Position numbers and translations under genes: made by a program | The notes under the pieces: model-generated | What the model was told of the DNA's origin: nothing | What the model saw: the letters and a program-made list of their open reading frames with translations, nothing else | Databases searched by the model: none | DNA from: Eledone cirrhosa | Taxonomy: Eukaryota | Assembly: GCA_964016885.1 (NCBI GenBank) | Contig: OZ024741.1 | Location: 324,756,001 to 324,820,000 of the forward strand | DNA: 64,000 nucleotides | Direction of reading: 5' to 3' | In this document: piece after piece, positions 2,942 through 64,000 of the stretch | How the letters are laid out: each line of letters starts with the position of its first letter | Position numbering within the stretch: position 1 is the stretch's first letter

Positions 2942-3512
2942 ATTGATTGTCGGCAGGGCTGCACCGTACAACTTCAAGAGGAAATGCGATCTTTGCCTCA
3001 TGGAGCTCTACCACATCATAACTGCACCCCACGAGCTCATCAACAGCAGAGCTGAAACAGCGATAAGTTTTACACATCGCTTAAAAATATCCTTCTTTAG
3101 ATGGGTTAAGAATGAAGAGTGAAATGGTACACTGGATCTTCCTGCAACAAGTCTTAACACCCCGGCGGGCAGGCGCAGCAAAATAACACCGAGAAAACAA
3201 TCCTTGCATACCAGACCCAGCCTCAGACAAAAGGATGCGACAAAAAAAAAAAAAAAAAAAAATTATCCGGGAAAGACTGCCCTAACACCGGCCAGAGTTA
3301 CCTCCCTTGACCTGCTGCAAAATCAAAACAAGATATTTTTGCGAGCAATGAATCTTGATGTAGATTTAACCCCCAAAACTCTTTCCGAACTATATAAGGA
3401 ACACTTGTGATTATTTATGCCCTTGAGAAGCCCAACTGGGCGAAACGTACGTAGGTGATATTTTAAATAAACATGTTTTAACGGTCTATTCTCCGATTTT
3501 TTACTTTCCCAC
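2942..3512 (+). mobile_element. 5'-truncated Penelope-like element: GIY-YIG C-terminus plus 3' UTR with HHR
   Basis: Translation [25 protein letters not shown]...LINSRAE resembles the CxLC..E..LN..E C-terminus of the 11010 ORF; HHR and AATAAA at the 3' end; (TA)n flanks. Confidence 0.75.
3419..3456 (+). ncRNA. Minimal hammerhead ribozyme, U3-A8 core variant (UUGAGAA)
   Basis: CC-TTGAGAA-GCCC aact GGGC-GAAA-CGTACG-TA-GG; palindromic stem III; very short stem I. Confidence 0.7.
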
Positions 3513-3574
<62 letters not shown>

Positions 3575-3620
3575 CGTAAAATAAGAAAATTATAAAATTA
3601 ACTTACTTACTAAAATTTCA

Positions 3621-3700
3621 CTCCCAACTAATTAGTTTCTGAAATGGAATAAATATACTTTCCGAAGAAAATATAGAGAATCATTTCGTCGTCAGGGAAG
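3621..3700 (-). ncRNA. Type I hammerhead ribozyme with extended stem II
   Basis: Minus strand: CTTCC-CTGACGA-cGAAATG...(TATATTTTC ttcg GAAAGTATA)...CATTTCa-GAAA-CTAATTAG-TT-GGGAG; GUU triplet. Confidence 0.75.
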
Positions 3701-4002
3701 TCTATTCTCAGCTAAGTATCCAGGCAAAGCATGGACTCTGGAAACTTATACAAAAATAATTCAGTGGATAGAAAATAGCAAAGCGTGGACTGAATTCCTA
3801 GCCATTGAGAAAATCACTGCCTACTGTGTCGGTGGCAAATTCAAAAAGAATCAATCACGTGACATCGAGGTCAATCAGTGGAAAGTGGTTTGTTCTGCAA
3901 CCCCGTGCATTGAACCACAAAGTTACTAAGACAAAACCTATATATTTGCTAGCATTGATATGCATCTGTATGTATATATATATGTTACTAGATATATTAA
4001 TT

Positions 4003-4042
<40 letters not shown>

Positions 4043-4320
4043 TTATATATATTTATATATATATATATATATATAAAAATACAAATAAATAATCGAGAAT
4101 CGGGATCTCGGCCCACGAAATCACGAAACACAATCTTCGAAATGTGTGGCAGAGGTCTCAATAGTTTGGGTAAACCAGAGCTATAACTATCGTTTAAATA
4201 CCAACACATAGAGACAATGCTTAAAATCATTCGCACAGCCGAAAAAACGACCAGGAAAATTCGGGTCACACAAATAATAAATTAATAAATTAATGAATTA
4301 AATGAATGTAATATATATAT

Positions 4321-4394
<74 letters not shown>

Positions 4395-4398
<4 letters not shown>

Positions 4399-7050
4399 AT
4401 ACTTTGGGAGGGTCATGTTGCCAATAAGAAACACACGCACCAGTTGCTTTCACTTCAATTTATTATAATAAATTTATAATAAATTTATAAATCCATAAAT
4501 TTCTGGTTGGTTGGTTGGTTCCACAACCAGACAGTTGTTTATACATAGTCATAGCTCCCTCGTCACACACTCTGTGACCTCCTCAGTGACTGGGGACCCC
4601 CCTCTCTGTCTCTGTGCCCCTCCCCTGCTCTGTCCCACGCCACCCCGTCTCTGTGTGTGTGTTGTGTGCTCAGTCTGCGCATCATTCGGGTGTCTGTGTA
4701 TGTTTATGTTCATTTATTTATTTGTTTATTTACATGTTACTGGTTGGTTGTTTGTTCTATGTGTGTGTGTGTTTTCATTTTGTCCTTAATTGTAAGTTGT
4801 GATGTTGCTGTTCCACTCATATTTTCTATTTAATTTTGGTTGTAATTCTTTTATGTTTATTGCCTCTGTAATTTGTCTAAACATTGCGTCTTTTCTGTGT
4901 GTAGATTCTATTTTTATTTCTATGTTCTCTAATTTACCCTTGTGTTCTATTTTAGCATGTTGGTAGAGTACAGATGATTCTTTACTATCCCGAAGGTCTC
5001 GCCAGTGTTCATTTATCCGTTCCCCTACACTACGAGCTGTCTCACCTATGTACACTATAATTTTGTCTCTACATTGTCCTTCAGTACATCTTATGCTATA
5101 CACTACATTTCTAGTTTTACAGTCAATATGGGGGCTTATTTTACAGGTTATACATTTCTTATCTATACATGAGGGCCTTTGGAAAGGGTATGTCTTGCCA
5201 ATAAGTGTTTTTACGGAGGTACCTGGTCTTTCTACTATCTTAATATTGAGTTTATGTTTATTTAGGGCCCTTCTAAATTTGTAAGCTAATTCACCTCTAG
5301 AGGTTGTATCGATGAACATTACACTCTGGTATTTATTGCTATCATACCATGAGTTTATTCTATTAGCCTTATTCCTAGTTCTTTCTATTCTATTCCAAAA
5401 TGTTGCTCCTGTACAAGGGGCAGGTCCCATTTATGTCATTATTTATCATTTTTTCCCATTCAGTTCTGGCTCCTCTATACACTCTGATTTTATCTCTCTG
5501 ATTGTAGCCAGAGAACTGCATACGGTGGATGAAGTGTTGTATGTGTCTCTCTAGTTCTTCGGGGTTGCACATGCGGGACACGTTTCTCATCACCCGTACC
5601 AAATCCGCAATCAGTATGTTGATTTTGGTATGGTCCGAAACGGCCGAGTTTCGGTGGATCAGATGTTTGGAAGTCATGGGTTTGGCATAATGGGAATGGA
5701 GGATTTTTTTTTGTTATTAATGGTATCTAACCAGAGCTCTGTGTCTAGTAGAGGCAATCGATGGTTGGGGTGTTTACTTGGGTAGTCTATAGTAACTCTA
5801 ATGCTCTGGTGGATGGAGTTAGCTATTTGCTGGATGCTTTCCATTGTGTTTTTCTCTAGTTCCTGATTGTTCTCTAGTGGGGGTGTCTTAACTACGATGT
5901 TTATATCATCAACGTAGCGGGAGTACATTATCAGGGTTAAGGGGTCTTCTAACTGTTCTTTAAGTTTAAGTTTAAGTCTACTGTCCCACCATACCATGAA
6001 TAAGTTAGCTATGTCGCCTGCAATGCTAACACCAATGGCTGCTCCTTCCTCTTGGGCATATGTTTTTCCATTAAATTTGAACATATGTTCCTTAAGGGTT
6101 AGTTTTATGCTGGCCCCTACCGCATGTGCAATCCTTTTCTTCAGTTCATCGTGGTTTTCGGGTGTCCGTATGGCTCTGGTCCACCCGTTCCATCTATCTG
6201 TGTGGGTTTTCTTGGCCATTGAGGTAATGGTAGGTGGTCTGCCTCTTGCTGGTCTTGTAGGGCACAGGTTGCTAAGGTCATATGTGTCTAGGTAATTATT
6301 ACTATAGGTAAGTTTAAGTAGGAGTCCCAGCTCACTGGTATCAATCCCACGGAACTCAACATTGCTCTCACTGATCATTTCTACGCATTTCTCCACAGCA
6401 AAATCCACGTCAATAGATGGATACAGGGACACAACATCCATACTACCTATTATGCAGTTTGTTAGGTCCCTAGATCTGTTACCCACGCCGATTCTGCTGA
6501 GGAAGTCCTCCGTGCTGTCACATACATCTGGGGACATTTCAATGATGGGGCGTATGATCAGGGAGAGGAAATAAGACAGTCTGTAGTTACTAGCAATGTT
6601 AGCTCCACAGACTGGCCGTGTTGGTGGTCCCGCGACAGGGTCACTGCCCGTTTTATGGTCTTTTCGAAGCCCATACAACGCCGGCACGTCATTGTTCCAG
6701 GCCTGGAAGTTGTTGGCAGTCCTTTTGTTGGGCTGCATTATATTCGTCCACATCACCATATGGGCATTGAGGGCTTTTTCTCTATCCTCATGCTCCTGTG
6801 GTGTTACCTCTCTTGTGTTAGTGATGTGGGGTTGCATTGCCTGGATGTAGTTTGGCAGGCTGTCAACCGACATTCTGCCAGACTTGTCTGTTGGAAAGAA
6901 TGCTATCTCTCCATTACGCGAGCGCTGCATGAGCTTACGCAAGCCATTTGCAGATTTTTCTCCCAGTTGCTGGGCCTCCATTCTATTATGCTTCTTGCTA
7001 TACTGTTCTATAATATTTCTAAGTTCGGATCTAGCTATACTAAATTGTGC

Positions 7051-52267: not shown

Positions 52268-54250
52268 TGTGTATGTGGGGGGGGGGGCGTATGTTATGTA
52301 TTTGTGTGTACGTATGTATGTGTATGTCCGTCGGGGCATACGTATGTACTGGCCTAAATCTTCACTATTTACTTTTACTATTTTAATAACCTGTCATTTT
52401 CGTTTTCAATTTTATTTACATCATTCTTAAACTACGGGGCTGGAAATCATTCTGTTATGTTAAATAGAATATTAGTCTAACGACTCCATTTATACCATAA
52501 ACTTGGTCTTGTCTTTGCATGAAATTGTTCTTCTCGTTCCACATAACGACGTATTATCCTCGCTTTTGTTCCCGTTCATTGCCAGGGAACGTCTTCACGA
52601 ACCAAAATATCGCCTTCCTGTTTTCGTTCGGTTGGAACGTTTCTCGAAATATTGACTTCTGCGTTCACAGATTACTCTCAGTTCAATTTGAATGGGAAAT
52701 TCCTGTTTCATCGATTTTCTCCGTAACCATGGAAGCTTGTACCCTAAAAGTCGACCCAACGCCTCTTCGGGTCATTCTGCATAACTGTAAATTTTCGCTG
52801 CATTCCACCAAGCCGTTTCGACGTTTATCCGACTACACCTACTTACTTAAATATACAACGTCCGACCACTTCTAATTTATATAGTAGACTAGCAGCTGAG
52901 CCCGGTTGCACCCGGGGCCACTTTTTATTAAGTTAATAATTTGAAAAATATTATTGAAAGTTTATTACAAAGAAGCAGTTTCAGGAAAAAAAAAAAAAAA
53001 TATGCACTTGGGGCTGGACGGCGTACAATGAGAAGTGGAGCGACGTGAAAAGCGTTGTTTATTAACAGCGAAATAGCAATGTCGATGATATGCAATTTGA
53101 AAAATACTACTTACTGTTAGTGGTGGTTAACATGTATTAGAATTAAAATAAAAACACGCGTCCCTTCTTCACAATTTCGCCAAGGGGGCGATACTTGGTT
53201 TTAGTGTCCTAAATTATCATCATTGACATTCAATTATTAGCTCCACCCACTACACGGTACGTCACGACACGTCATCAGCTGCTGCTGGTGCTTGATTTTT
53301 ACATGTTCATTTTCTTACATGCTTCATTTTTACACGAAAAAACATTAAATTTTTAGAATAAATATTTATTAAAATATTAATTCTAAAAATTTTATGTTTA
53401 TTAAAATATTAACAAAGAAAATTAGATTTTTGATTCATTTTTTGAACAAAATAAATATTTATTTACAGTTTTTCACAGAAAAACTATGCTTCATTTTTAT
53501 ATGAATATTTATTTACAGTATTTAACAGAAAAAAAATTGCTGCGAAATACAATATTTTTTTTAACAGATTTACAGTTTTTAACAACAGAAAAAAAATTTC
53601 TTTACACAATATATTGTTGCGATATACAGTTTAAAATTTTTTCGAAACGTTTACCTTCGTGACGTATCGTGTAGTGAGTGGAGCTAATAATTGAATGTCG
53701 ATGATGATAATTTAGGACACTAAAACCAAGTATCGCCAAGGGTTTTATTTCTTTTGATAGAAAACAGTGACCGTACTGCAGAATCGATTTCATAAAACGG
53801 TACTATATGATCGTTAAATGTAGAAGAATGATAGTTTATTAACAGCGAAATAGCAATGTCGATGATATGCAAGTTTAAAAATGCATATTATGAAGGTTTG
53901 TATGATAGTTTACACTTTTTCCTGAAACTGCTTCTTTCAATAATATTTTTCAAATTATTGGTACTGTATGTTAACAGCGAAAGAACGTTGATGAGTTTAA
54001 AAATGTGTATGAAATTGTAAATAAGACAAAAGTATTAGAACAGGAGGAAATAACTCACCGAACGCGATAGTTTGGGGGCCCCAGGGACCACATTTTTCAA
54101 GTTAGAGATTTGAAACCTCGTCTATTTGCTTCCTTGGCACTTTTTACATAGGTGTGTAAATTTTCATGTCAGTCCGACCACGTCTACTACCATTTAACCG
54201 TGCACATTTGAATTTCAACCACCGCCCATTTCACAAATATATATTAGATT
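51787..54250 (+). mobile_element. Two adjacent Helitron/Helentron-like non-autonomous elements
   Basis: Both begin ACTAGCAG..CCCGG....CC/TCGGG hairpin (51787, 52888) and end TATA(G/T)TAGA (~52888, ~54249); the second has internal inverted and direct repeats. Confidence 0.55.
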
Positions 54251-56307
54251 GCAAATGTTTCTCCGGCGAACAGCTCGAGGTGCGATCTGTTGGTGGATCG
54301 ACCTGACTCTGGATTCGCAAGTTCCTCAGATACGTCTGTTGGTTACAAAGCAGGTTCTCTTTCTAAAGTGTTCCGATCTGCCGAGTATATATCGTCTGTC
54401 TTCATCCTGTCCGCGCGTCCTCTGGGTTGGTCACTGGTTTGTGACGTCATCACAGTTCTGGCCACTGATATCTGCCCTCTGACCATCTAGTCGTGAGATG
54501 TCACTCATCTTCGTCCCATCCTCAAAATTACTGCTATGTGTACTTACACACACTCCCGTACAAACACACACACACACACGCGCGGACTGACACACACAGA
54601 TAGAGCCTGCGTGCTTGCGTTCTCGCATGTACCTACACATTCATATACACTTATCTACATATACACCCACACGTACACAGTCACACACATGTACATGCAC
54701 GCACAGAGAAGCATATATACCCACACATGCACATATGCGTACGCATACACACAGACACACATATTTGTAGTTACATACATCCACCTACCTACACACACAC
54801 ATATACATATACACCTACACACATATGCACACACACACACACATGTATACACACATATATATATATGTATACATATATATACACACACGTGTACATACAC
54901 ACACACACGCACGCACACGTATATATTTTCGTCCTACCCATGTGTACATACATACACACACACATATATATATATATACACACATACATATATATACACT
55001 CACACGTATATATATATACACATATATATATATATACACACACATACATATATATAAATATACACTCACACGTACATATATATATACACATATATATATA
55101 CACACATACATATATATATATACACACATACACATATGCGCCCCATGTATACGCACCCGTGCTTACATATGCACTCAAATGGGCCTACATTTTCACGCAC
55201 ACACATTCACACATATATATATCTATATCCACATACATATACACACGTGCACACAGATACCTATATACGCCATATGCATACACACACATATATATATGCA
55301 TACACACGTATATGTTCATACACACATACACCCACACATGCGCACACATGTCTACACACACATATTTATGTGTGCACACATATACACATACCCATCCACA
55401 CACACATATATATATATATACACACACACACATATACGCATACGTGCGCGTACTTTTACCAGCACATGCACACACATATACGTCCACCTGGACATATATA
55501 CACCCACGCACACAAGCGTATATGTATACATACCCCACCCCCCCGCGCGCTCATAGGCGGACGTACATGCACATACGTACGCTCATATATCTGAATGAAC
55601 TGTGTATAAAAGTATAAAAATATAAAAGTGTAAAAATATAAAAGTATAAAAATATAAAAGTGTAAAAAATAAACTTATAAAATATGCAAAAATATATTAA
55701 AAATATATAAAAGTAATAAAAAATAATGACTATAAACTGTATAAAAAGTATCTGGAGGGGGTATGCAGGGAGTACATGGTGCTGTACATCGAGATGTTAC
55801 GTGAGGAAATAGGTGTAAGGTAGGGAGAAAGTGCGCATGGGGGTACGATATTTAGTGCATGCAGCATCTCATATGCCGGTATATCGGTACGTTCAGACAT
55901 ACTTTGGTGTACATGTTGACAGAGTTGGCATTATGGTACTAACGTGGAATAATCCACTTATAGAAATCTCAAGCAGAATTACATATGTTGAGCTCATGGG
56001 AATAATGTAAAGGGTATAGACAGAACATACAAAGAATGCATACAGAATATAAACAAATACATACATATATAATATATAAGCATATGAATATATAAGGAAA
56101 GCGTATAAAAAAACACATTGGGTTGTACATGGGTGCCGGTGTCCTTCAAGTCCCATATTAGGTCCGCCAGCCTAGTGGTGTGTCTCTTGCTTCCCGGTCC
56201 TTAAAAGAACTTGTGTGATTACGCTGGGTCCTGACCCTGTTCGGCGTTCCTCCGATTCTGCGGGTGTTGTTCTGTCTTAGACCTAGTCCTATACCGTCGT
56301 CTGTCAG

Positions 56308-56366
<59 letters not shown>

Positions 56367-57673
56367 ATGTGTGGTGGGGTCAGATGCACCTCCTGGGTTG
56401 TGTCTACCCGTTATTTCATCCCCTATGTTACCGTTATCTATATATCTACCATGTGCGTCCGGATTACGCTGTCCGCTTAGTGACATATTGTGTTCTATAT
56501 TGTCGGGTCTACTGGTGGTCCCGCTAATGCTATCTGGTACTGTTGTCGGGGTCATTTCATTGCTATTGATCCGGGTGTTCCCTCTATCTGGTTCCAGGTC
56601 CAGATCTGCCTTTACTCTGTCACTAGTTCCAGTTTCCGCGTTGCGCATTGTGTCTGTGTATACTATGTGGTCTACCGTCCGCGCGTACCTGTGTCTGTCT
56701 TAGTGTCAATCTAGCGCTCCTAGTGTAATCTATACTGCTAGCCCTATTCTTAGATGCTTGTTCCGGGTTATTCTGCCTACCTATAGAAGTCCTACTGCTA
56801 TCCTCATATGCGCGTTCATCACCGCTGGGCCTTTCCCTGTCTGGGGTGTACACTGTGGCTTCTGTGTAACTGGCCCTGCGTAGTGCCTCATTATAATAGT
56901 CGGCGTGCTGGTTGAACACGTCTGCGTTGGCCGACAGGGTGGATACGCGTTTGGATACCCTTCTTACTATGGCGTCTATTACGGACTTGGGGTGGTTCGA
57001 GTGCCTGTTTACGTACTGTAGGTTCTCGTTTGGCTTGTGGTAAGGCCGGTGTTACATCTAGGAAATTCACCGTCTTAGTGCTAGGATCTATCATCACGGA
57101 TAAGCCGTGCTGTTAAAAAAAAAATGCGATATGCGCTTCCTCATACGCTCCAGCTGGTTGAGGTTTAGGGAGAGGAAGCTAAATAGTGCGTCGTCTCTAT
57201 ATATTCTTCCGCAGATCCCTGGGATTTCCTCCGCTAGCCTTTGGAGAAGATATATTCCCACCAGGTCCGTCACCTGCGCAGAGTCACTCGACCCCATAGT
57301 AATATCGAAACTATCGGGTCTGTCCCTCCTTGCCCAAAGTTTATTGTCGAAGCTAATTAACGTCTTTCTCGCTGGTATTATGATGTTAACTTCTTCTCTA
57401 GTGAGGTTGGACTTAGCCATGGCGCTCATGAGGGCCTTGTTCACGATTACTGGTGATACGGACGCGTAGTAATTCACTATGTCCAATTGAATGAAATTTA
57501 CTTGATGTTTGCTATCTAATAGCGAGAACCAGTCTATTACCTCCTTGGTGGAGGTCCATAAGCTAAGCCTAGTTTTAGTCCTAAGTACCGGTAGGATCCT
57601 ATCTATGATATTCTTACTGGCCCTACCTAGGTCTCCTAACGGGGGAGATTTGTCCTAAAGTCTAATTTGTGAT

Positions 57674-57677
<4 letters not shown>
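54250..57677 (-). mobile_element. 5'-truncated Penelope-like element (related to 9713-13400), internally deleted, with a CA/TA-rich 3' UTR
   Basis: LSLWTSTKEVIDWF, QLDIVNYY, FDITMGSSDSAQVTDLVG, IYRDD, VNFLDVT, SNHP, FNQHADYYNEAL; GIY-YIG remnant HTTRLADLIWDLKD at ~56130-56185. Confidence 0.85.
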
Positions 57678-57712
<35 letters not shown>

Positions 57713-58286
57713 TTAAAATAAGCAGTCTTATATGATAGAACCAGGAGTGGTTTCGGACGGTTTGACATGAAAAGTGACAAAATGATAATAGTTATAAACA
57801 AGATGTTTGTTTTTAATAATAATTGGTTCATGTAACATAAGAACCTATTTAGTAGATTTAATCAGTTAAGTACTGTGTATAAGTGTCTCATTGTATAACA
57901 ATTAGAAATGTGGAACAATGTTATAGTTAACAATTGGTTTTCTGGAGTAAAACCCAGTGTCTGTTGGTTTGTTTACGTTAGGAAATTAAATACCATAATA
58001 AAAATGTTCCTACATTTGGCACAAGGCCAGCAATTACTGTGCTTTATTTTATCGACCCCATAAGGATAATAATAATAATAATAGTTTCTACTTTTGGCAC
58101 AAGGACAGCAAGTATCAGTGTATTACTGGTACTTTATTTTATCAACCCCGTAAGGATGAAAGGCAAAGTTAACCTCGGCGGGATTTGAACTCAGATTGGA
58201 AAGGGCCGTAACTCTATGCGTCAAAGCATGGCGTCCGATCCTCTACCGATACTGCCAATAATAATAATAATTGTTTCTACTTTTTA

Positions 58287-58329
<43 letters not shown>

Positions 58330-58386
58330 GTAGTAAAAGTTAGGTGGAAATATCCAAGGGTAAGAACACTCAGTCCATAGGTTTAG

Positions 58387-58557
58387 TATAAATAATTCCA
58401 ACACCGACATAAGCATGTACTCAAGTTTCGTTGGGTTCTGGGCCCCAACTCATTCAGCCTGTCATGAGGAAAAAAAACATGACAGGCTGAATGAGTTGGG
58501 GCCCAGAACCCAACGAAACTTGAGTACCTGTTTATGTCACTGTTGTAATTATTTATA
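58387..58557. ncRNA. Palindromic pair of divergent hammerhead ribozymes, one on each strand
   Basis: Perfect 50-bp arms 58417-58466 and 58478-58527 around an 11-nt A-rich loop; each reads CATGACAGG-CTGAATGA-GTTGGG gcccagaa CCCAAC-GAAAC ttga GTA; the + copy closes stem I with CCTGTTTATG. Confidence 0.82.
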
Positions 58558-58565
58558 TATAATCA

Positions 58566-58583
58566 AAAGGTACCTGATTGATC

Positions 58584-58651
<68 letters not shown>

Positions 58652-58670
58652 GATCAATCAGGTGCCCTTT
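58566..58670. repeat. Hairpin with microsatellite core
   Basis: AAAGGTACCTGATTGATCT(GT)n(AT)n(AC)nAGATCAATCAGGTGCCCTTT. Confidence 0.8.
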
Positions 58671-59744
58671 GTTTACATTTTATTATGTACGGCAATTGTC
58701 AACTTAAACAGAAATAGCACTTTTTATTTAACTTTCGTCTTATTGCTAATAATCCTATATAACAAACGGTAAACTGATTTTTTTTAAAACGAACTAGGCA
58801 CCTTTTTGTTGGTTTGTTTTTCATTTCGTGTTGGAGTGAGTTTATAATGTTAACTTTTAATACAGTATATAACATAACATGCAATTAAAATATATTAATT
58901 TATAATATATAACAGTAGAAATTAAAAAAAGATTTACCGTGAATATTTTGTTGCTCTTCTTCAATTTAGGGTAGAGTTATTTAACGCAGAGTTTAATAAT
59001 AATTCAAAAGACGAGAGATCCGTCAAACAAGATTTATACATTTCATAGCAGAAGCTGCTGTAGAAGAGATGTGTTTTTCCGGTGAAAAGTTTGTGAGTGT
59101 TCCTTATTATTTTAAATCCTGGGTTACAAGAGAGATGCAATGGAAGAGAAAGAAGCTAATCATCAGATCCGACCAAGGAAATAATGTTTCCATTGGTCTT
59201 TTCATTACAACTATTATCCGTCAGGCGCAACTGTTGGCAGAAGGAGGCGGGATTTAAACTCAGGATGTACTGAGCCATATCAGATACTTCAAAGCATCTT
59301 GTTGGACTTCGCCGGGATTTGAATTCAGAACGTAACAAAGACATTACTAAATACCAAACAAAATATTTCAGCCGACACTACCGATTCTGCCAATCCACTT
59401 AACCATAATCTCCTCTAAAATTGTTGGCTTTGTGCCTAAATCAAAATCATTTTCAAGAAGCAGTTCTCAGAGTTACCTCCCGTGCACTATGAAGTTCTCT
59501 CTAAGCTTCCCGATGATATTTATTGTCAAGAGGTGGTTGAGCGGAAAACTTGATAGTACACTGGAAAAAATGTCTTGCTTGTCACGACTGTTTAGGATTT
59601 TGAGTTTAAATACTCACCCTAATTATTTGAAGCTTTCCAGTTAAGTCCCTTCTTGTTCTCAGTTCAAATCCCACTTTCATTTTTCTGGTCAATTGTATTT
59701 CTTTCGATTTAAATTACTATATCTCTATACAAAACGTTTCCTGA

Positions 59745-59890
59745 TATGGCTGTGTGGTTAAGGAGTTTGCTCGGCAACCACACAGTTCTGGGTTCAATCC
59801 TACTGCGCGGCACCTTAGGCAAGTGTCTTTTACTATAGCTTTGGATTGTCCAGTGCTTTGTGAGTGAAATTTAGTAAATGAGAACTGCAG
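59745..59890 (+). mobile_element. tRNA-derived SINE (third family)
   Basis: TGGCTGTGTGGTTAAG A box, GGTTCAATCC B box, CACCTTAGGCAAGTGTCTT body. Confidence 0.65.
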
Positions 59891-61194
59891 AATTTATATA
59901 TATATTGTGTGTGTCTGTTTACGTTTGTATATAGCAGTTCGACAAAAACAAAGAAACTATCGACATTTTTGTGGGTTGCAATGTGACAGTCTTGATATCT
60001 TCCTCGATCTCCGTTGCCCAGTCTATTTTTGTGTGCCCTAGTTGTTGTATAACTCAGGGTTAGCCCTGATAAAGCAGCTCACATATTTATGGTCCTAGTC
60101 ATATACCATATCTCTGCTTGGCTGAGACAATACTTCACAACCTGACATTAAAGCAAGCCAGTCATATATACAGGGTGATTCAAAATATTTGATATCATAG
60201 CCTGTTCCCAATGGTGTCACATTAAAATATATATTGTGAACCCGTCTAACCCATGCTAACGTAAAACGGTGATGATGATGATTATGAATTAGTGTTGTAA
60301 TGTTGAAAATGTTTGAGGAATAAATCTTACATTGCTCAACATTAAGCCTGCTCAGTCACATTATCCTAGACTTTGTAGTTTCTGGGTTATATATATATAC
60401 ACCTCACATTTTTTAAAACACCATGTATATAGTCAGAACATTGTTCACATCTCCATCTGCCCAATGCAGTGATGTATCCTATGAGGTGCAGTACAACAAT
60501 CTGGTCATGTTGCTTCCCACCCACATTGACTAGGCTATGTATATTTGCCAACAGATTTTTTGGAGGTTCCCACAGCAAAAGTAGGCAAGATGAAACATGA
60601 GAGTGAAAGTCAGAGCAAGCTCCCTCTCCCAATTATCCCAAATAAAATAATTTCAACTCAGTTTGGAAAGCTGACAAATTTAGTTTTTTAATACTGCTTG
60701 TTCTCAACAGTCTAAGAAAATTACTAAGCCTGCAGTTTCCACTATACACTTCCACACTCACCCATGACATATTATGTGACAGGTCATAACACCATACAAT
60801 CTACTCCACTACTTTGGATCTATCAACAACATTGCTACAAGGCAAAGATTTTTAGCAATTTATTAATTGATCGCAGGAAATTATTTGTGTATATTTAAAT
60901 TAGCACAAGGCTAACAATTTTTGGGGAAATCAACCTCAGTATATTACTGGTACTTTATTTTATCAACTCCCATAAGGATGAAAGGCTAAGCTATCATCAG
61001 CGGGATTTGAAATCAGAACGTAAAGGGACGTAACTACATGCTGCAAAGCATGTTTTCCAACGTTCTCCGATTACTGCCAATCCACCGCCCCTTAAATTTG
61101 TATAAAATAATAATCCTTTAACGTTCAGTAATGTACCTCTCTCAGTTCTGCTGCCTAGTTGGCTTTAATGGTAGCACCAGCACTGATCCTTTAA

Positions 61195-61414
61195 CACTTT
61201 ATCATATACATTACTCTATATATACTATTGTATTTTCACAGTAAAGGCTTTACCTCATTAATTATCTCACATAATATCGAATGTATGAGATTTTGTTGTT
61301 ATTTATTTTGAGAACAATACCTTAACGTTGATATGAACAGCCAGTCACAGTCAGTTTGAACAGAATGAGGTGAGGGAATTCTGGCCAGATATGGCCGGTT
61401 TAAATGCCTAAGGG
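61195..61414. mobile_element. piggyBac-like MITE, second copy
   Basis: TTAA-CACTTTATCAT ... TAAATGCCTAAGGG-TTAA; internal similarity to 42805-43025. Confidence 0.7.
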
Positions 61415-61801
61415 TTAATGTTCAGTAATGTACCTCTCTAAAGTCTGTAACCTAAGTGGCTTTAATGGTAGCACCAGCACTGGAGATAGTTACTGTTCTT
61501 CTGTACTCCTTGCTGCTCAGTAGTGTGCAGGGGGTGGAGGCATCGATATTGGGGTAGATGGTAGAGGTGGTGGTCGGACATTCAACCAAAGTGTCACACA
61601 GGCTTCTCCATTCAATATGGCTACTGAGCGCAATACCCATCCAAAAGAGATTATTAAAATATGTGCCAGACGCTTTAAAAAAAAGTTCTTAGGTCAATAT
61701 GCTCAACTAAATGTCTTCAAAGCAGTGCCCAGCATGAAACCAATTTAATAACAGAATAAGAGTAAAGACATTAAAATCAAAAAGAAAAGATTTATTATTA
61801 T

Positions 61802-61807
<6 letters not shown>

Positions 61808-61839
<32 letters not shown>

Positions 61840-61856
61840 TATATATTATATATATG

Positions 61857-61890
<34 letters not shown>

Positions 61891-61892
61891 TG

Positions 61893-61926
<34 letters not shown>

Positions 61927-62044
61927 TGATATATATATATATATATATATAATATATATGATATATATATATATATATATATAATATATATGATATATAT
62001 ATATATATATATATATATGATATATATATATATATATATATATA

Positions 62045-62126
<82 letters not shown>

Positions 62127-62193
62127 TATATATAATATATATGATATATAAATGATATATATAATATATATGGTATATATATATATTATATAT

Positions 62194-62236
<43 letters not shown>
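61808..62236. repeat. Interrupted (TA)n microsatellite; similar tracts at ~1737, 2794, 3514, 4007, 4311, 7056, 7625, 8020, 16852, 23510, 27170, 29165, 31609, 39057, 39478, 41147
   Basis: Direct observation. Confidence 0.95.
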
Positions 62237-62238
<2 letters not shown>

Positions 62239-62679
62239 TAGATATATTTGATAGGAGAAAGAATGTTTATAAATATTTCATTTCCTTTGTAGGGTGTTTT
62301 TTGTTTGTCTTTTTCTTTTTCCTGTGTGATATCACAATTTTATAGTGTTTCTCTCTCTCATACCATTGTAACCAAGTGGAGATATCACATGATATTATTA
62401 TAATATAATAGAAATGGCATGTAGTTTTAGAAACCATGCCAAATCAGGAACATATGTGGCCCCTACCCTTCTGGGGTAGACAGTAATTCTGATAAAGTAC
62501 AGACTTCGTCTGTAACGACCCATCAAACCCATGCCAGTATGGAAAAACAGACGTTAAATAATGATGATGATAAGGAGGAGAATGATGTTGATGAATATCA
62601 TATGATATTATCATATACTAATTTTTGGAATATCACATTATCACAATATAATATAATAGATATCATATATATTATAATA

Positions 62680-62988
62680 CAGTAAAACCTGGGTCCACGA
62701 ATGCCTCTAATCATGAACAAATCAGTTTATGAACAATTTTTTCAAACATAAAACATCTCAGTTCATGAACAGTGTCTCGAGTAACACACAAGCCAGCAAC
62801 AATGGCAAAGTGTCACTTGTTGTGTAGTTAGTTACTATGATGATGTCTACCTGTCATTCACACAGTCTCACTCTTGCTGTATTTCTCTCTCAACATTTTG
62901 TATGGTAAAAATAGTTTCAGTTAATGAACATTTCAAGTGACGAACATCCTTCAGGGATGAATTAACTTCGTGAACCGAGCTTCCACTG
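62680..62988. mobile_element. pogo/Tigger-like MITE with TA target duplication
   Basis: TA-CAGTAAAACCTGGGTCCACGAA ... TTCGTGAACCGAGCTTCCACTG-TA. Confidence 0.75.
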
Positions 62989-63249
62989 TATATGGAATAT
63001 CACATATTATCATATAATGGATATCACAAATTATTATATTATAATATAATGGATAGCACAAATTATCATATTATAATATAATGGATATCTCATATTGTCA
63101 TATCATATGATCATAAAATAACATACTGAATATCATGATATTATTGTAATGTAATATATGGGATATCACATGATATAATATATTCCTGTGGTGCACACTC
63201 ACTCGCTCCCCTTGCAATATATCATCTTACTTTTTTTTTTATCAATGAT

Positions 63250-63925
63250 TTCCATGGAAACAAATCAAGTGACTAGTTATAAATGTAAAATGGTTTCCAA
63301 GGGAACAAAGCTGTCATGTGACCAGTTATAAATGTAAGACAGTTTCTATGGGAACAGAGTCATAAATGTAAGATGGTTTCTATAGGAACAGAGTCATAAA
63401 TGTAAGATGGTTTCTATGGGAACAGTCATAAATGTAAGATGGTTTCTATGAGAACAGTCATAAATGTAAGATGGTTTCTATGGGAACAGAGTCATAAATG
63501 TAAGATGGTTTCTATGAGAACAGTCATAAATGTAAGATGGTTTCTATGGGAACAGAGTCATAAAAGTACGATGGTTTCTATGAGAACAGTCATAAATGTA
63601 AGATGGTTTCTATGAGAACAGTCATAAATGTAAGATGGTTTCTATGAGAACAGTCATAAATGTACGATGGTTTCTATGAGAACAGTCATAAATGTAAGAT
63701 GGTTTCTATGAGAACAGTCATAAATGTAAGATGGTTTCTATGGAAAAAAAAGCTGTCATGTGATCAGTCAAACAAAATAGTTTCTATGGGAACAGAGGTA
63801 TCACATGACCAGTCATAAGTGTAATATGGTTTCTGTGGAAACAAAAATGATCACATGACCAGTCATAAGTGTAATATGGTTTCTATGGAAACACAAGTGA
63901 TCACGTGACCAGTTATAAATGTAAT
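63250..63925. repeat. Minisatellite: 30/32-bp homogeneous core flanked by ~42-bp diverged units
   Basis: (AAATGTAAGATGGTTTCTATGAGAACAGTCAT)n at ~63330-63745; flanking units add a TCACATGACCAG-like segment. Confidence 0.9.
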
Positions 63926-64000
63926 AGGTGGAATAAAGACATAAAGCTATTGTATCATGATTAAAATATAAAAACAGGCAGGGAATTGGTAGAGTTGTTA

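Follow-up and report, generated by a model that had tools for sequence, protein, structure and literature searches.

Palindrome with a hammerhead-like motif on each strand

The stretch analysed here (the window) comprises 64,000 nt of the Eledone cirrhosa genome and contains a long inverted repeat, whose arms of 80 nt each lie 11 nt apart at 58387-58466 and 58478-58557. The arms are 94% complementary (5 of the 80 positions differ), and the inner 50 bp (58417-58466 / 58478-58527) pair perfectly. The fold of 58360-58600 reaches -145 kcal/mol (z = -19), a value equalled by 0 of 200 shuffles, so the inverted repeat that the original prediction had described, of ~80 bp with a perfect 50-bp part, is real. 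Furthermore, a 33-nt motif running from CTGAATGA through GAAAC was found exactly twice in the window, once on each strand and nowhere else (expected 0), in agreement with the proposal of one hammerhead-like motif per strand.

The plus-strand arm (58478-58557) carries no tail and ends at the second 3' end of its repeat family, in TA repeats. Its parts, read from the sequence, are stem I (58482-58486 / 58527-58531), the core CTGAATGA (58487-58494), stem II with GTTGGG/CCCAAC (58495-58500 / 58509-58514), GAAAC (58515-58519), a near-palindromic stem III (58518-58525) and a predicted cut site at GUA, after 58526. In the minus-strand arm (58387-58466) the core lies at 58457-58450 and the predicted cut falls after 58418; a further ~30 nt follow the motif in this arm. 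The stem II letters, the GAAAC-ttga-GTA stretch and both cut coordinates, 58526 (+) and 58418 (-), agree with those given beforehand. The minus arm carries 5 substitutions, two of them in stem I, and in a constrained fold it reached, with its two stem I mismatches, -4.8 kcal/mol versus -12.7 kcal/mol for the plus arm. The family sequence upstream of stem I (58467-58486 in the window) has a polypyrimidine tract and then CAG/G directly ahead of the core, an arrangement similar to a 3' splice site and hence a putative acceptor; the intron of D. virilis Penelope is described as ending in helix I (Cervera 2014, PMC4209133).

The palindrome had been placed at 58387-58557, which is correct for the repeat itself but misses the tail of the minus arm, with which the left edge moves to ~58330. 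This tail (58330-58386, minus strand, ~57 nt) was identified by nhmmer and blastn matches to the family tail and is present on the minus arm only. The copy in the window thus spans 58330-58557, palindrome plus tail, with a minus arm from 58477 to 58330 that includes the tail and a plus arm without it. The 11-nt spacer is not a separate loop but the reverse complement of the T-rich tract that lies upstream in the family, and the junction (58467-58477, minus strand) consists of a minus-arm remnant of that tract joined to a 5'-truncated plus arm. A (CA)n(TA)n(CA)n microsatellite occupies the left junction (58287-58329), and (TA)n is reported as the favoured target of Hydra Penelope-like elements (PLEs) (Craig 2021, PMC8557442).

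Perfect symmetry does end 1 nt past the cut site in the window, as had been noted, but it is not supported as a mechanistic sign and stems from the substitutions of the minus arm. Among 19 parsed pairs the break fell at +1 or +2 in 5, and the inner part was perfect in 4, with the first outer mismatch at +2 (the window), at +4, and nowhere in the other two; the comparison was ungapped, and outer mismatches are inflated by indels.

Rfam returned 74 matches at E <= 1 in 54000-64000, with no hammerhead family among them. The matches are hairpin-type miRNA families below their gathering scores and were judged chance matches to the long hairpin; the hammerhead-like motif falls outside the Rfam models.

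Regarding its folding, freeing stem II alone from the palindrome costs 36 kcal/mol on either strand, as anticipated by the claim that the hairpin and the catalytic fold exclude each other. In a transcript from either strand the antisense arm is made first. The palindrome is unlikely to act as a ribozyme because of this cost, the order of synthesis and the two stem I mismatches of the minus copy: a hammerhead inside it would stay locked, and any transcript would be a long double-stranded hairpin. This exclusion argues for a silenced by-product over a switch.

Copies of the arm in the genome

A query with one arm gave 2051 candidates in the animal's own 3.0-Gb genome, of which 40 were scored. 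Three hammerhead-anchored searches yielded 80 distinct insertions, which are the best-scoring or first-listed matches and not a random draw, and the proposed comparison of palindromic with single-arm copies could be made with them: 38 are head-to-head pairs and 42 are single arms. Exactly one arm bears the tail in 30 of the pairs, both arms in 1 and neither in 7, counts in which decayed tails may be missed. Arms end at one of two fixed 3' ends, with or without the tail, and (TA) repeats follow most element ends. The distance between arms is at most 52 nt in 36 of the 38 pairs; these 36 short junctions were printed, and each differs from all the others. In about 5 pairs the junction is of one CA microhomology type, and this recurring type has the tail on the long arm in the window versus the short arm in two other pairs (L004 and L007). 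Pairs are present in all subfamilies, and the arms of one pair usually belong to the same subfamily.

The upstream ends of the arms pile up. Within the window's subfamily group, to which this measurement refers, homology stops no more than 34 nt before the core in nearly all paired arms (51 of 52) and in 24 of 42 other arms (75/94 altogether), while 15 of the 42 other arms extend more than 100 nt upstream. The predicted cut site is not such an end. Exact matches to the stretch just 3' of it numbered 569, and hammerhead letters continue across the site in 99 of the first 100 listed, read by eye. At most 1 of these 100 copies begins at the cut site, and no genomic footprint of cutting was found among them.

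Assignment to the Hydra clade

On their upstream side, single arms run on into a common body, which codes for a nuclease of GIY-YIG-like type and for a CxCx5C linker. In a near-complete copy (L155) a truncated hammerhead (3252-3312) is followed by the tail (3313-3371), ORF remnants (3480-5307), a 3' UTR and a second hammerhead (5697-5772). The tail of the 5' pLTR is the stretch after the hammerhead, toward the ORF, and in this full-length copy it runs into the 5' UTR and the start codon. The unit measures about 2.45 kb between the hammerheads (under 3 kb in the Hydra definition), and its broken RT-EN ORF, between the two hammerheads, aligns to residues 64-700 of the ORF of a sister family at 51-64%.

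The RT motifs KDHK, FDI..FYP and MGSF are found in natural copies, all of them broken, and no intact ORF of the family was found among 150 scored matches. DKT, not DKG, is present in 5 of 5 copies, and the RWK-like motif of the clade appears as IWRA or R*RA in 2 of 5, where the sister family has RWR. The CxCx5C linker reads CSCRRPETC and the C-terminus has CRLC and CPH or CLH, with no CCHH motif; these motifs were compared by eye with the Hydra rows of Fig. S2 of Craig 2021. DKT, CxCx5C, a GIY-YIG-type nuclease, CxxC and CxH are the traits given for the Hydra clade (Craig 2021, PMC8557442). By the motifs shared with that definition, each arm of the palindrome is identified as the end (pLTR) of a Hydra-clade PLE, in line with the earlier suggestion of a product of PLE-type reverse transcription. 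An assignment to the Neptune or Nematis clade was rejected on comparing the linker motifs with the same figure. Pfam gave no hits with the family and sister ORFs and a PDB sequence search gave none; GIY-YIG clusters are among the Atlas neighbours of the sister ORF. A tree was built of the nuclease region from the copies of this genome only, with the sister family as outgroup, and its end branches have a median of 0.076 changes per site.

The family resembles Penelope-13_HM and Hydra-1_Obim of the Hydra clade (Craig 2021, PMC8557442) in its GIY-YIG-type nuclease, DKT, CxCx5C, CxxC and CxH motifs, its length of about 2.45 kb and its (TA)n surroundings, as well as in a type I hammerhead at the 3' end with a palindromic stem III. 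In Penelope-13_HM the same hammerhead lies on both strands through an inverted 5'-truncated copy (Craig 2021 File S2). The hammerhead of Hydra-1_Obim is a different sequence, and the window family is therefore another family, which may already carry a Repbase name. Unlike this family, 0 of the 26 Hydra rows of File S2 have an extra base between A6 and G8; their cores are CUGANGA with or without one base after A9.

The sister family, with about 57% protein identity, is far more abundant (52,029 candidates are shared between both families) and has open ORFs of up to 722 aa (L083-L089, L093). Its hammerhead has the canonical core CTGA(A/G)GA, a U10.1-U11.1 mismatch, a 2-bp stem II, a palindromic stem III and a GUU triplet, and its tail is homologous to that of the family described here. 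The tail (58360-58386 on the minus strand of the window; 1583-1646 in L016; the 3' end of L087) contains a small hairpin with a bulge; in the sister family, at 57% protein identity, the stem is conserved and the loop differs. This hairpin is a candidate protein-binding or RT-start element.

The 8-nt core and the constraint on the hammerhead

The core CUGAAUGA has 8 nt: one additional base stands between A6 and G8, and every other core letter is in place. It departs by that one base from the consensus C3 U4 G5 A6 N7 G8 A9 ... G12 A13 A14 A15, U16 H17. A pattern with the 8-nt core had 493 matches versus 0 in the reversed control, and a looser pattern 826 versus 24. In the usual PLE hammerhead a single spare base separates CUGANGA from stem II (Cervera and de la Pena 2014, PMC4209133); the consensus in the supplement is CUGANGAH. 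The window family shares with these minimal PLE hammerheads the short stem I, the 6-bp stem II with G10.1-C11.1, the palindromic helix III for dimer folding and a stretch of 8 unpaired bases from stem I to stem II; in those hammerheads the spare base is placed between 9 and 10.1, whereas here it lies between A6 and G8 and is fixed family-wide in hundreds of copies. Judged by its letters, the core resembles the natural A6a variant, in which a base is inserted after A6 and for which low activity was reported (Perreault 2011, PMC3088659).

The 8-nt core is ancestral in the family, because the early branches (sister outgroup) carry CTGAATGA with other loop II sequences and the CTGAAGA-A copies are nested, within the window's subfamily (clade support 95/84). 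Thus, a young subfamily has moved to the usual PLE register, CUGAAGA-A. A pattern for this derived form gave 161 matches, and nearly all of the 100 listed carry it; exact matches number 54. A search blind to the core covered 30 loci, read by eye, and returned CTGAATGA in 12, decayed cores of the same spacing in about 7, CTGAAGAA in 1 and no 7-nt core, the rest ending early. A copy of an older subfamily (L226, G000:C2:359543264) likewise has CTGAAGAA before G10.1 and is a possible independent shift to the canonical register. A further repeat with the hammerhead-like tail end GAAACCAAGGTA was observed at G000:C1:43068836 (L100), C1:211653082, C1:212073707 and C1:257404862; it is preceded by CAGA(T/C)GAG, not CUGANGA, and is possibly another core variant.

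Conservation was examined in an alignment (A1) whose core columns are invariant by row selection. The three stems around the core are paired in 89% of 520 cells, with two-sided changes at pairs 1 and 5 of stem I. In 40 rows, pair 2.1/1.1 is GC in 24, AU in 14 and unpaired in 2, and pair 2.5/1.5 is AU in 23, GC in 8, GU in 3 and unpaired in 6. In an older subfamily the first pair, otherwise G-C, has become A-U in 12 of 12 copies, and the fifth, otherwise A-U, has often become G-C; these compensatory changes amount to one or two events on the tree. Distal stem I has two alternative pairings, both fitting. Stem III is TTGA in 79, TTAA in 37 and TCGA in 3 of 138 parsed arms; all common variants are self-complementary and give self-duplexes, which is the signature of a dimer, and stem III has 2 bp as a monomer and 8 bp as a self-duplex. 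Pair 10.1-11.1 is unpaired in 12 of 40 rows, and A10.1-C11.1 mismatches have spread in amplifying subfamilies, which suggests a weak constraint on catalysis. The core, GAAAC, GUA and the palindromic stem III, on the other hand, are retained across three subfamilies whose loop II is wholly different.

The motif may be read as a minimal type I hammerhead that would cut only as a stem III dimer or with the protein of the element, and its cutting would be slow because of the extra base after A6. In the literature compared, to which Lunse et al. 2017 (PLE hammerhead variants), supplement file 1 of Cervera 2014 and the Perreault 2011 figures do not belong, no PLE family was described with this core, and as far as this literature goes, the family-wide shifted core with its reversion is a modest new variant. 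Should the shifted core cut, hammerheads would be undercounted by any descriptor that requires CUGANGA. The family also provides two natural cores, CUGAAUGA-G and CUGAAGA-A-A, which are equally long and sit in otherwise near-identical RNA.

Origin of the palindrome

The palindrome is a head-to-head stub of a Hydra-clade PLE, a shape that is already known, and in itself is ordinary PLE debris. Inverted pLTRs of EN+ PLEs have likewise been described with a head-to-head 5'-truncated copy, the tail at one end and short junction palindromes (Arkhipova 2013, PMC3846280; Craig 2021 Fig. 2), but the halves here are only 80-150 nt with no body between them, and the tail has ~64 nt versus 30-40 nt in EN+ PLEs. 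Very probably it is a dead stub insertion in which two short hammerhead-bearing pLTR copies were joined head to head. The join likely arose when the RT extended both nicked strands of a (TA)n target, with uncut element RNA as its template. By analogy with another PLE (Frangieh 2024), reverse transcription on each strand would start at one of two internal sites that bound the tail. The templates would have been uncut (or re-ligated), because 99 of the 100 listed copies cross the predicted cut site. Judging from the truncation ends, the RNA would start ~30 nt upstream of the core, and short cDNAs begun in the 5' pLTR would run off this end after 100-190 nt, since upstream homology stops there. 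The two cDNA ends would then be joined, often at small palindromes or at a short microhomology. In 2 of 5 printed long copies a TATA-like word is present ~32 nt before the putative RNA start; the D. virilis Penelope is described as having a TATA-less internal promoter. The U-rich tract upstream of stem I could also stall the RT or favour joining, with the same pile-up as a result.

This scheme relies on the Poseidon PLE of Anolis, PAc, for which Frangieh 2024 (PMC11167929) reports that both target strands are cut and extended, that reverse transcription starts at two internal sites bounding the tail, that a shorter RNA 5' end gives a shorter product, that RNA left uncut serves as the main template, and that the hammerhead acts with help from the protein yet is not needed for insertion in vitro, hammerhead mutants still being inserted. 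PAc and the window family have in common a tail that lies downstream of the hammerhead between two fixed 3' ends, as well as AT-rich targets and uncut RNA as template, the last deduced from the copies for the window family. PAc belongs to another clade, its start sites lie inside the ORF versus the 5' UTR here, and it is known from assays, whereas the window family is known from sequence alone. That 5' ends are piled up just before the motif but absent from the cut site gives genomic support to the internal-initiation model, which has so far been shown in vitro for one PLE. The other route proposed for head-to-head junctions, self-priming on an antisense template (Arkhipova 2013, PMC3846280), remains compatible with the present data.

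The pairs could also descend from a non-autonomous palindromic derivative (MITE-like or retrozyme-like) moved as a unit by the PLE protein. Very many copies are indeed minimal, with the two arms close together in all but two of the pairs, and the CA junction recurs; however, identical junctions would be the mark of a unit and there are 0 among 36, the recurring junction type places its tail on different arms, and pairs occur in all subfamilies with matching arms, as expected if they are built at insertion. We regard such a derivative as improbable. A non-LTR retrozyme was discarded, as it needs head-to-tail tandem monomers with a canonical hammerhead (PMC6765202) and the window has one head-to-head pair with two motifs. 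The original prediction had also considered a small ambisense viroid-like element, that is, an integrated RNA with one working hammerhead per polarity, and the single motif on each strand and the occurrence of GUA triplets in such RNAs (PMC9608096) fit this. Nevertheless, both motifs derive from a single PLE end, repeated in inverted orientation, and are not two distinct ribozymes; the family comes with an RT-endonuclease ORF, the hairpin beats the catalytic fold by at least 36 kcal/mol with stem I broken in the minus copy, metagenome contigs had 0 exact matches to the motif pattern, and for Penelope-13_HM hammerheads on opposite strands, due to a truncated copy in inverted orientation, have been published before; with all the printed junctions different and about half of the insertions (42/80) being single arms, this origin is very hard to sustain. 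Opposite-strand hammerhead pairs 100-700 bp apart are also reported in Schistosoma (Cervera 2014, PMC4209133). Paired hammerheads of this kind in animal genomes can mimic viroid-like RNAs in scans, which is a warning. Palindromes are a known class of artefact. No contig from three public runs (one sample) spans the locus, a result that is uninformative for a repeat, and a read or assembly fold-back, the concern raised beforehand, is most unlikely given that the arms differ at 5/80 positions, the tail is on one arm, the flanks differ and the same family-specific asymmetry is repeated at 38 loci.

With the stub insertion retained as the explanation of the palindrome, the activity of the motif is a separate question. 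The same PLE origin would hold if the motif is now non-catalytic and its structure is kept for protein binding or RT initiation; this alternative concerns catalysis only and is compatible with the stub. The low activity of the natural A6 insertion (Perreault 2011, PMC3088659), the scarcity of copies starting at the cut site (at most 1/100), the insertion of hammerhead mutants in vitro (Frangieh 2024, PMC11167929) and the tolerated 10.1-11.1 mismatch all speak for it. Retention of the core, GAAAC, GUA and stem III under three different loops, compensation in stem I right at the cut site and the move of the youngest subfamily to the canonical register speak against it, and we consider the loss of catalysis a real prospect that is somewhat doubtful. 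Close to an even call, yet still short of one, is the reading that a whole PLE family kept a working A6a-type CUGAAUGA hammerhead, overlooked by standard descriptors, through several amplification waves, with the youngest branch back in the canonical register and the stubs marking both sites of RT initiation as well as the RNA 5' end. The part that hammerheads play in PLEs has been termed unclear (Craig 2021, PMC8557442), and if this reading is true, the stubs are a natural test of it.

Neighbourhood of the palindrome

A second hairpin (58562-58683) follows the palindrome and has a (TG)n(TA)n(CA)n microsatellite at its centre, with ~25 nt of flank repeated in inverted orientation on the two sides. 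It was rejected as part of the PLE, since this flank is single-copy. Among the fetched loci, microsatellite-centred inverted repeats were present at 9 of 757 TA-containing microsatellites, and at 2 of 28 near element ends. The second hairpin may be a by-product of repair at the target, and nothing links it to the family.

On the minus strand, 56623-57654 holds a remnant of another Hydra-type PLE RT ORF, about 33% identical to the sister family and with no DNA match to the body of the palindrome family; it ends at a (TA)n run 680 bp to the left of the palindrome. Moreover, a dispersed SINE-like repeat that is frequent in the fetched loci has copies at 58006-58260, 59241-59400 and 60890-61000.
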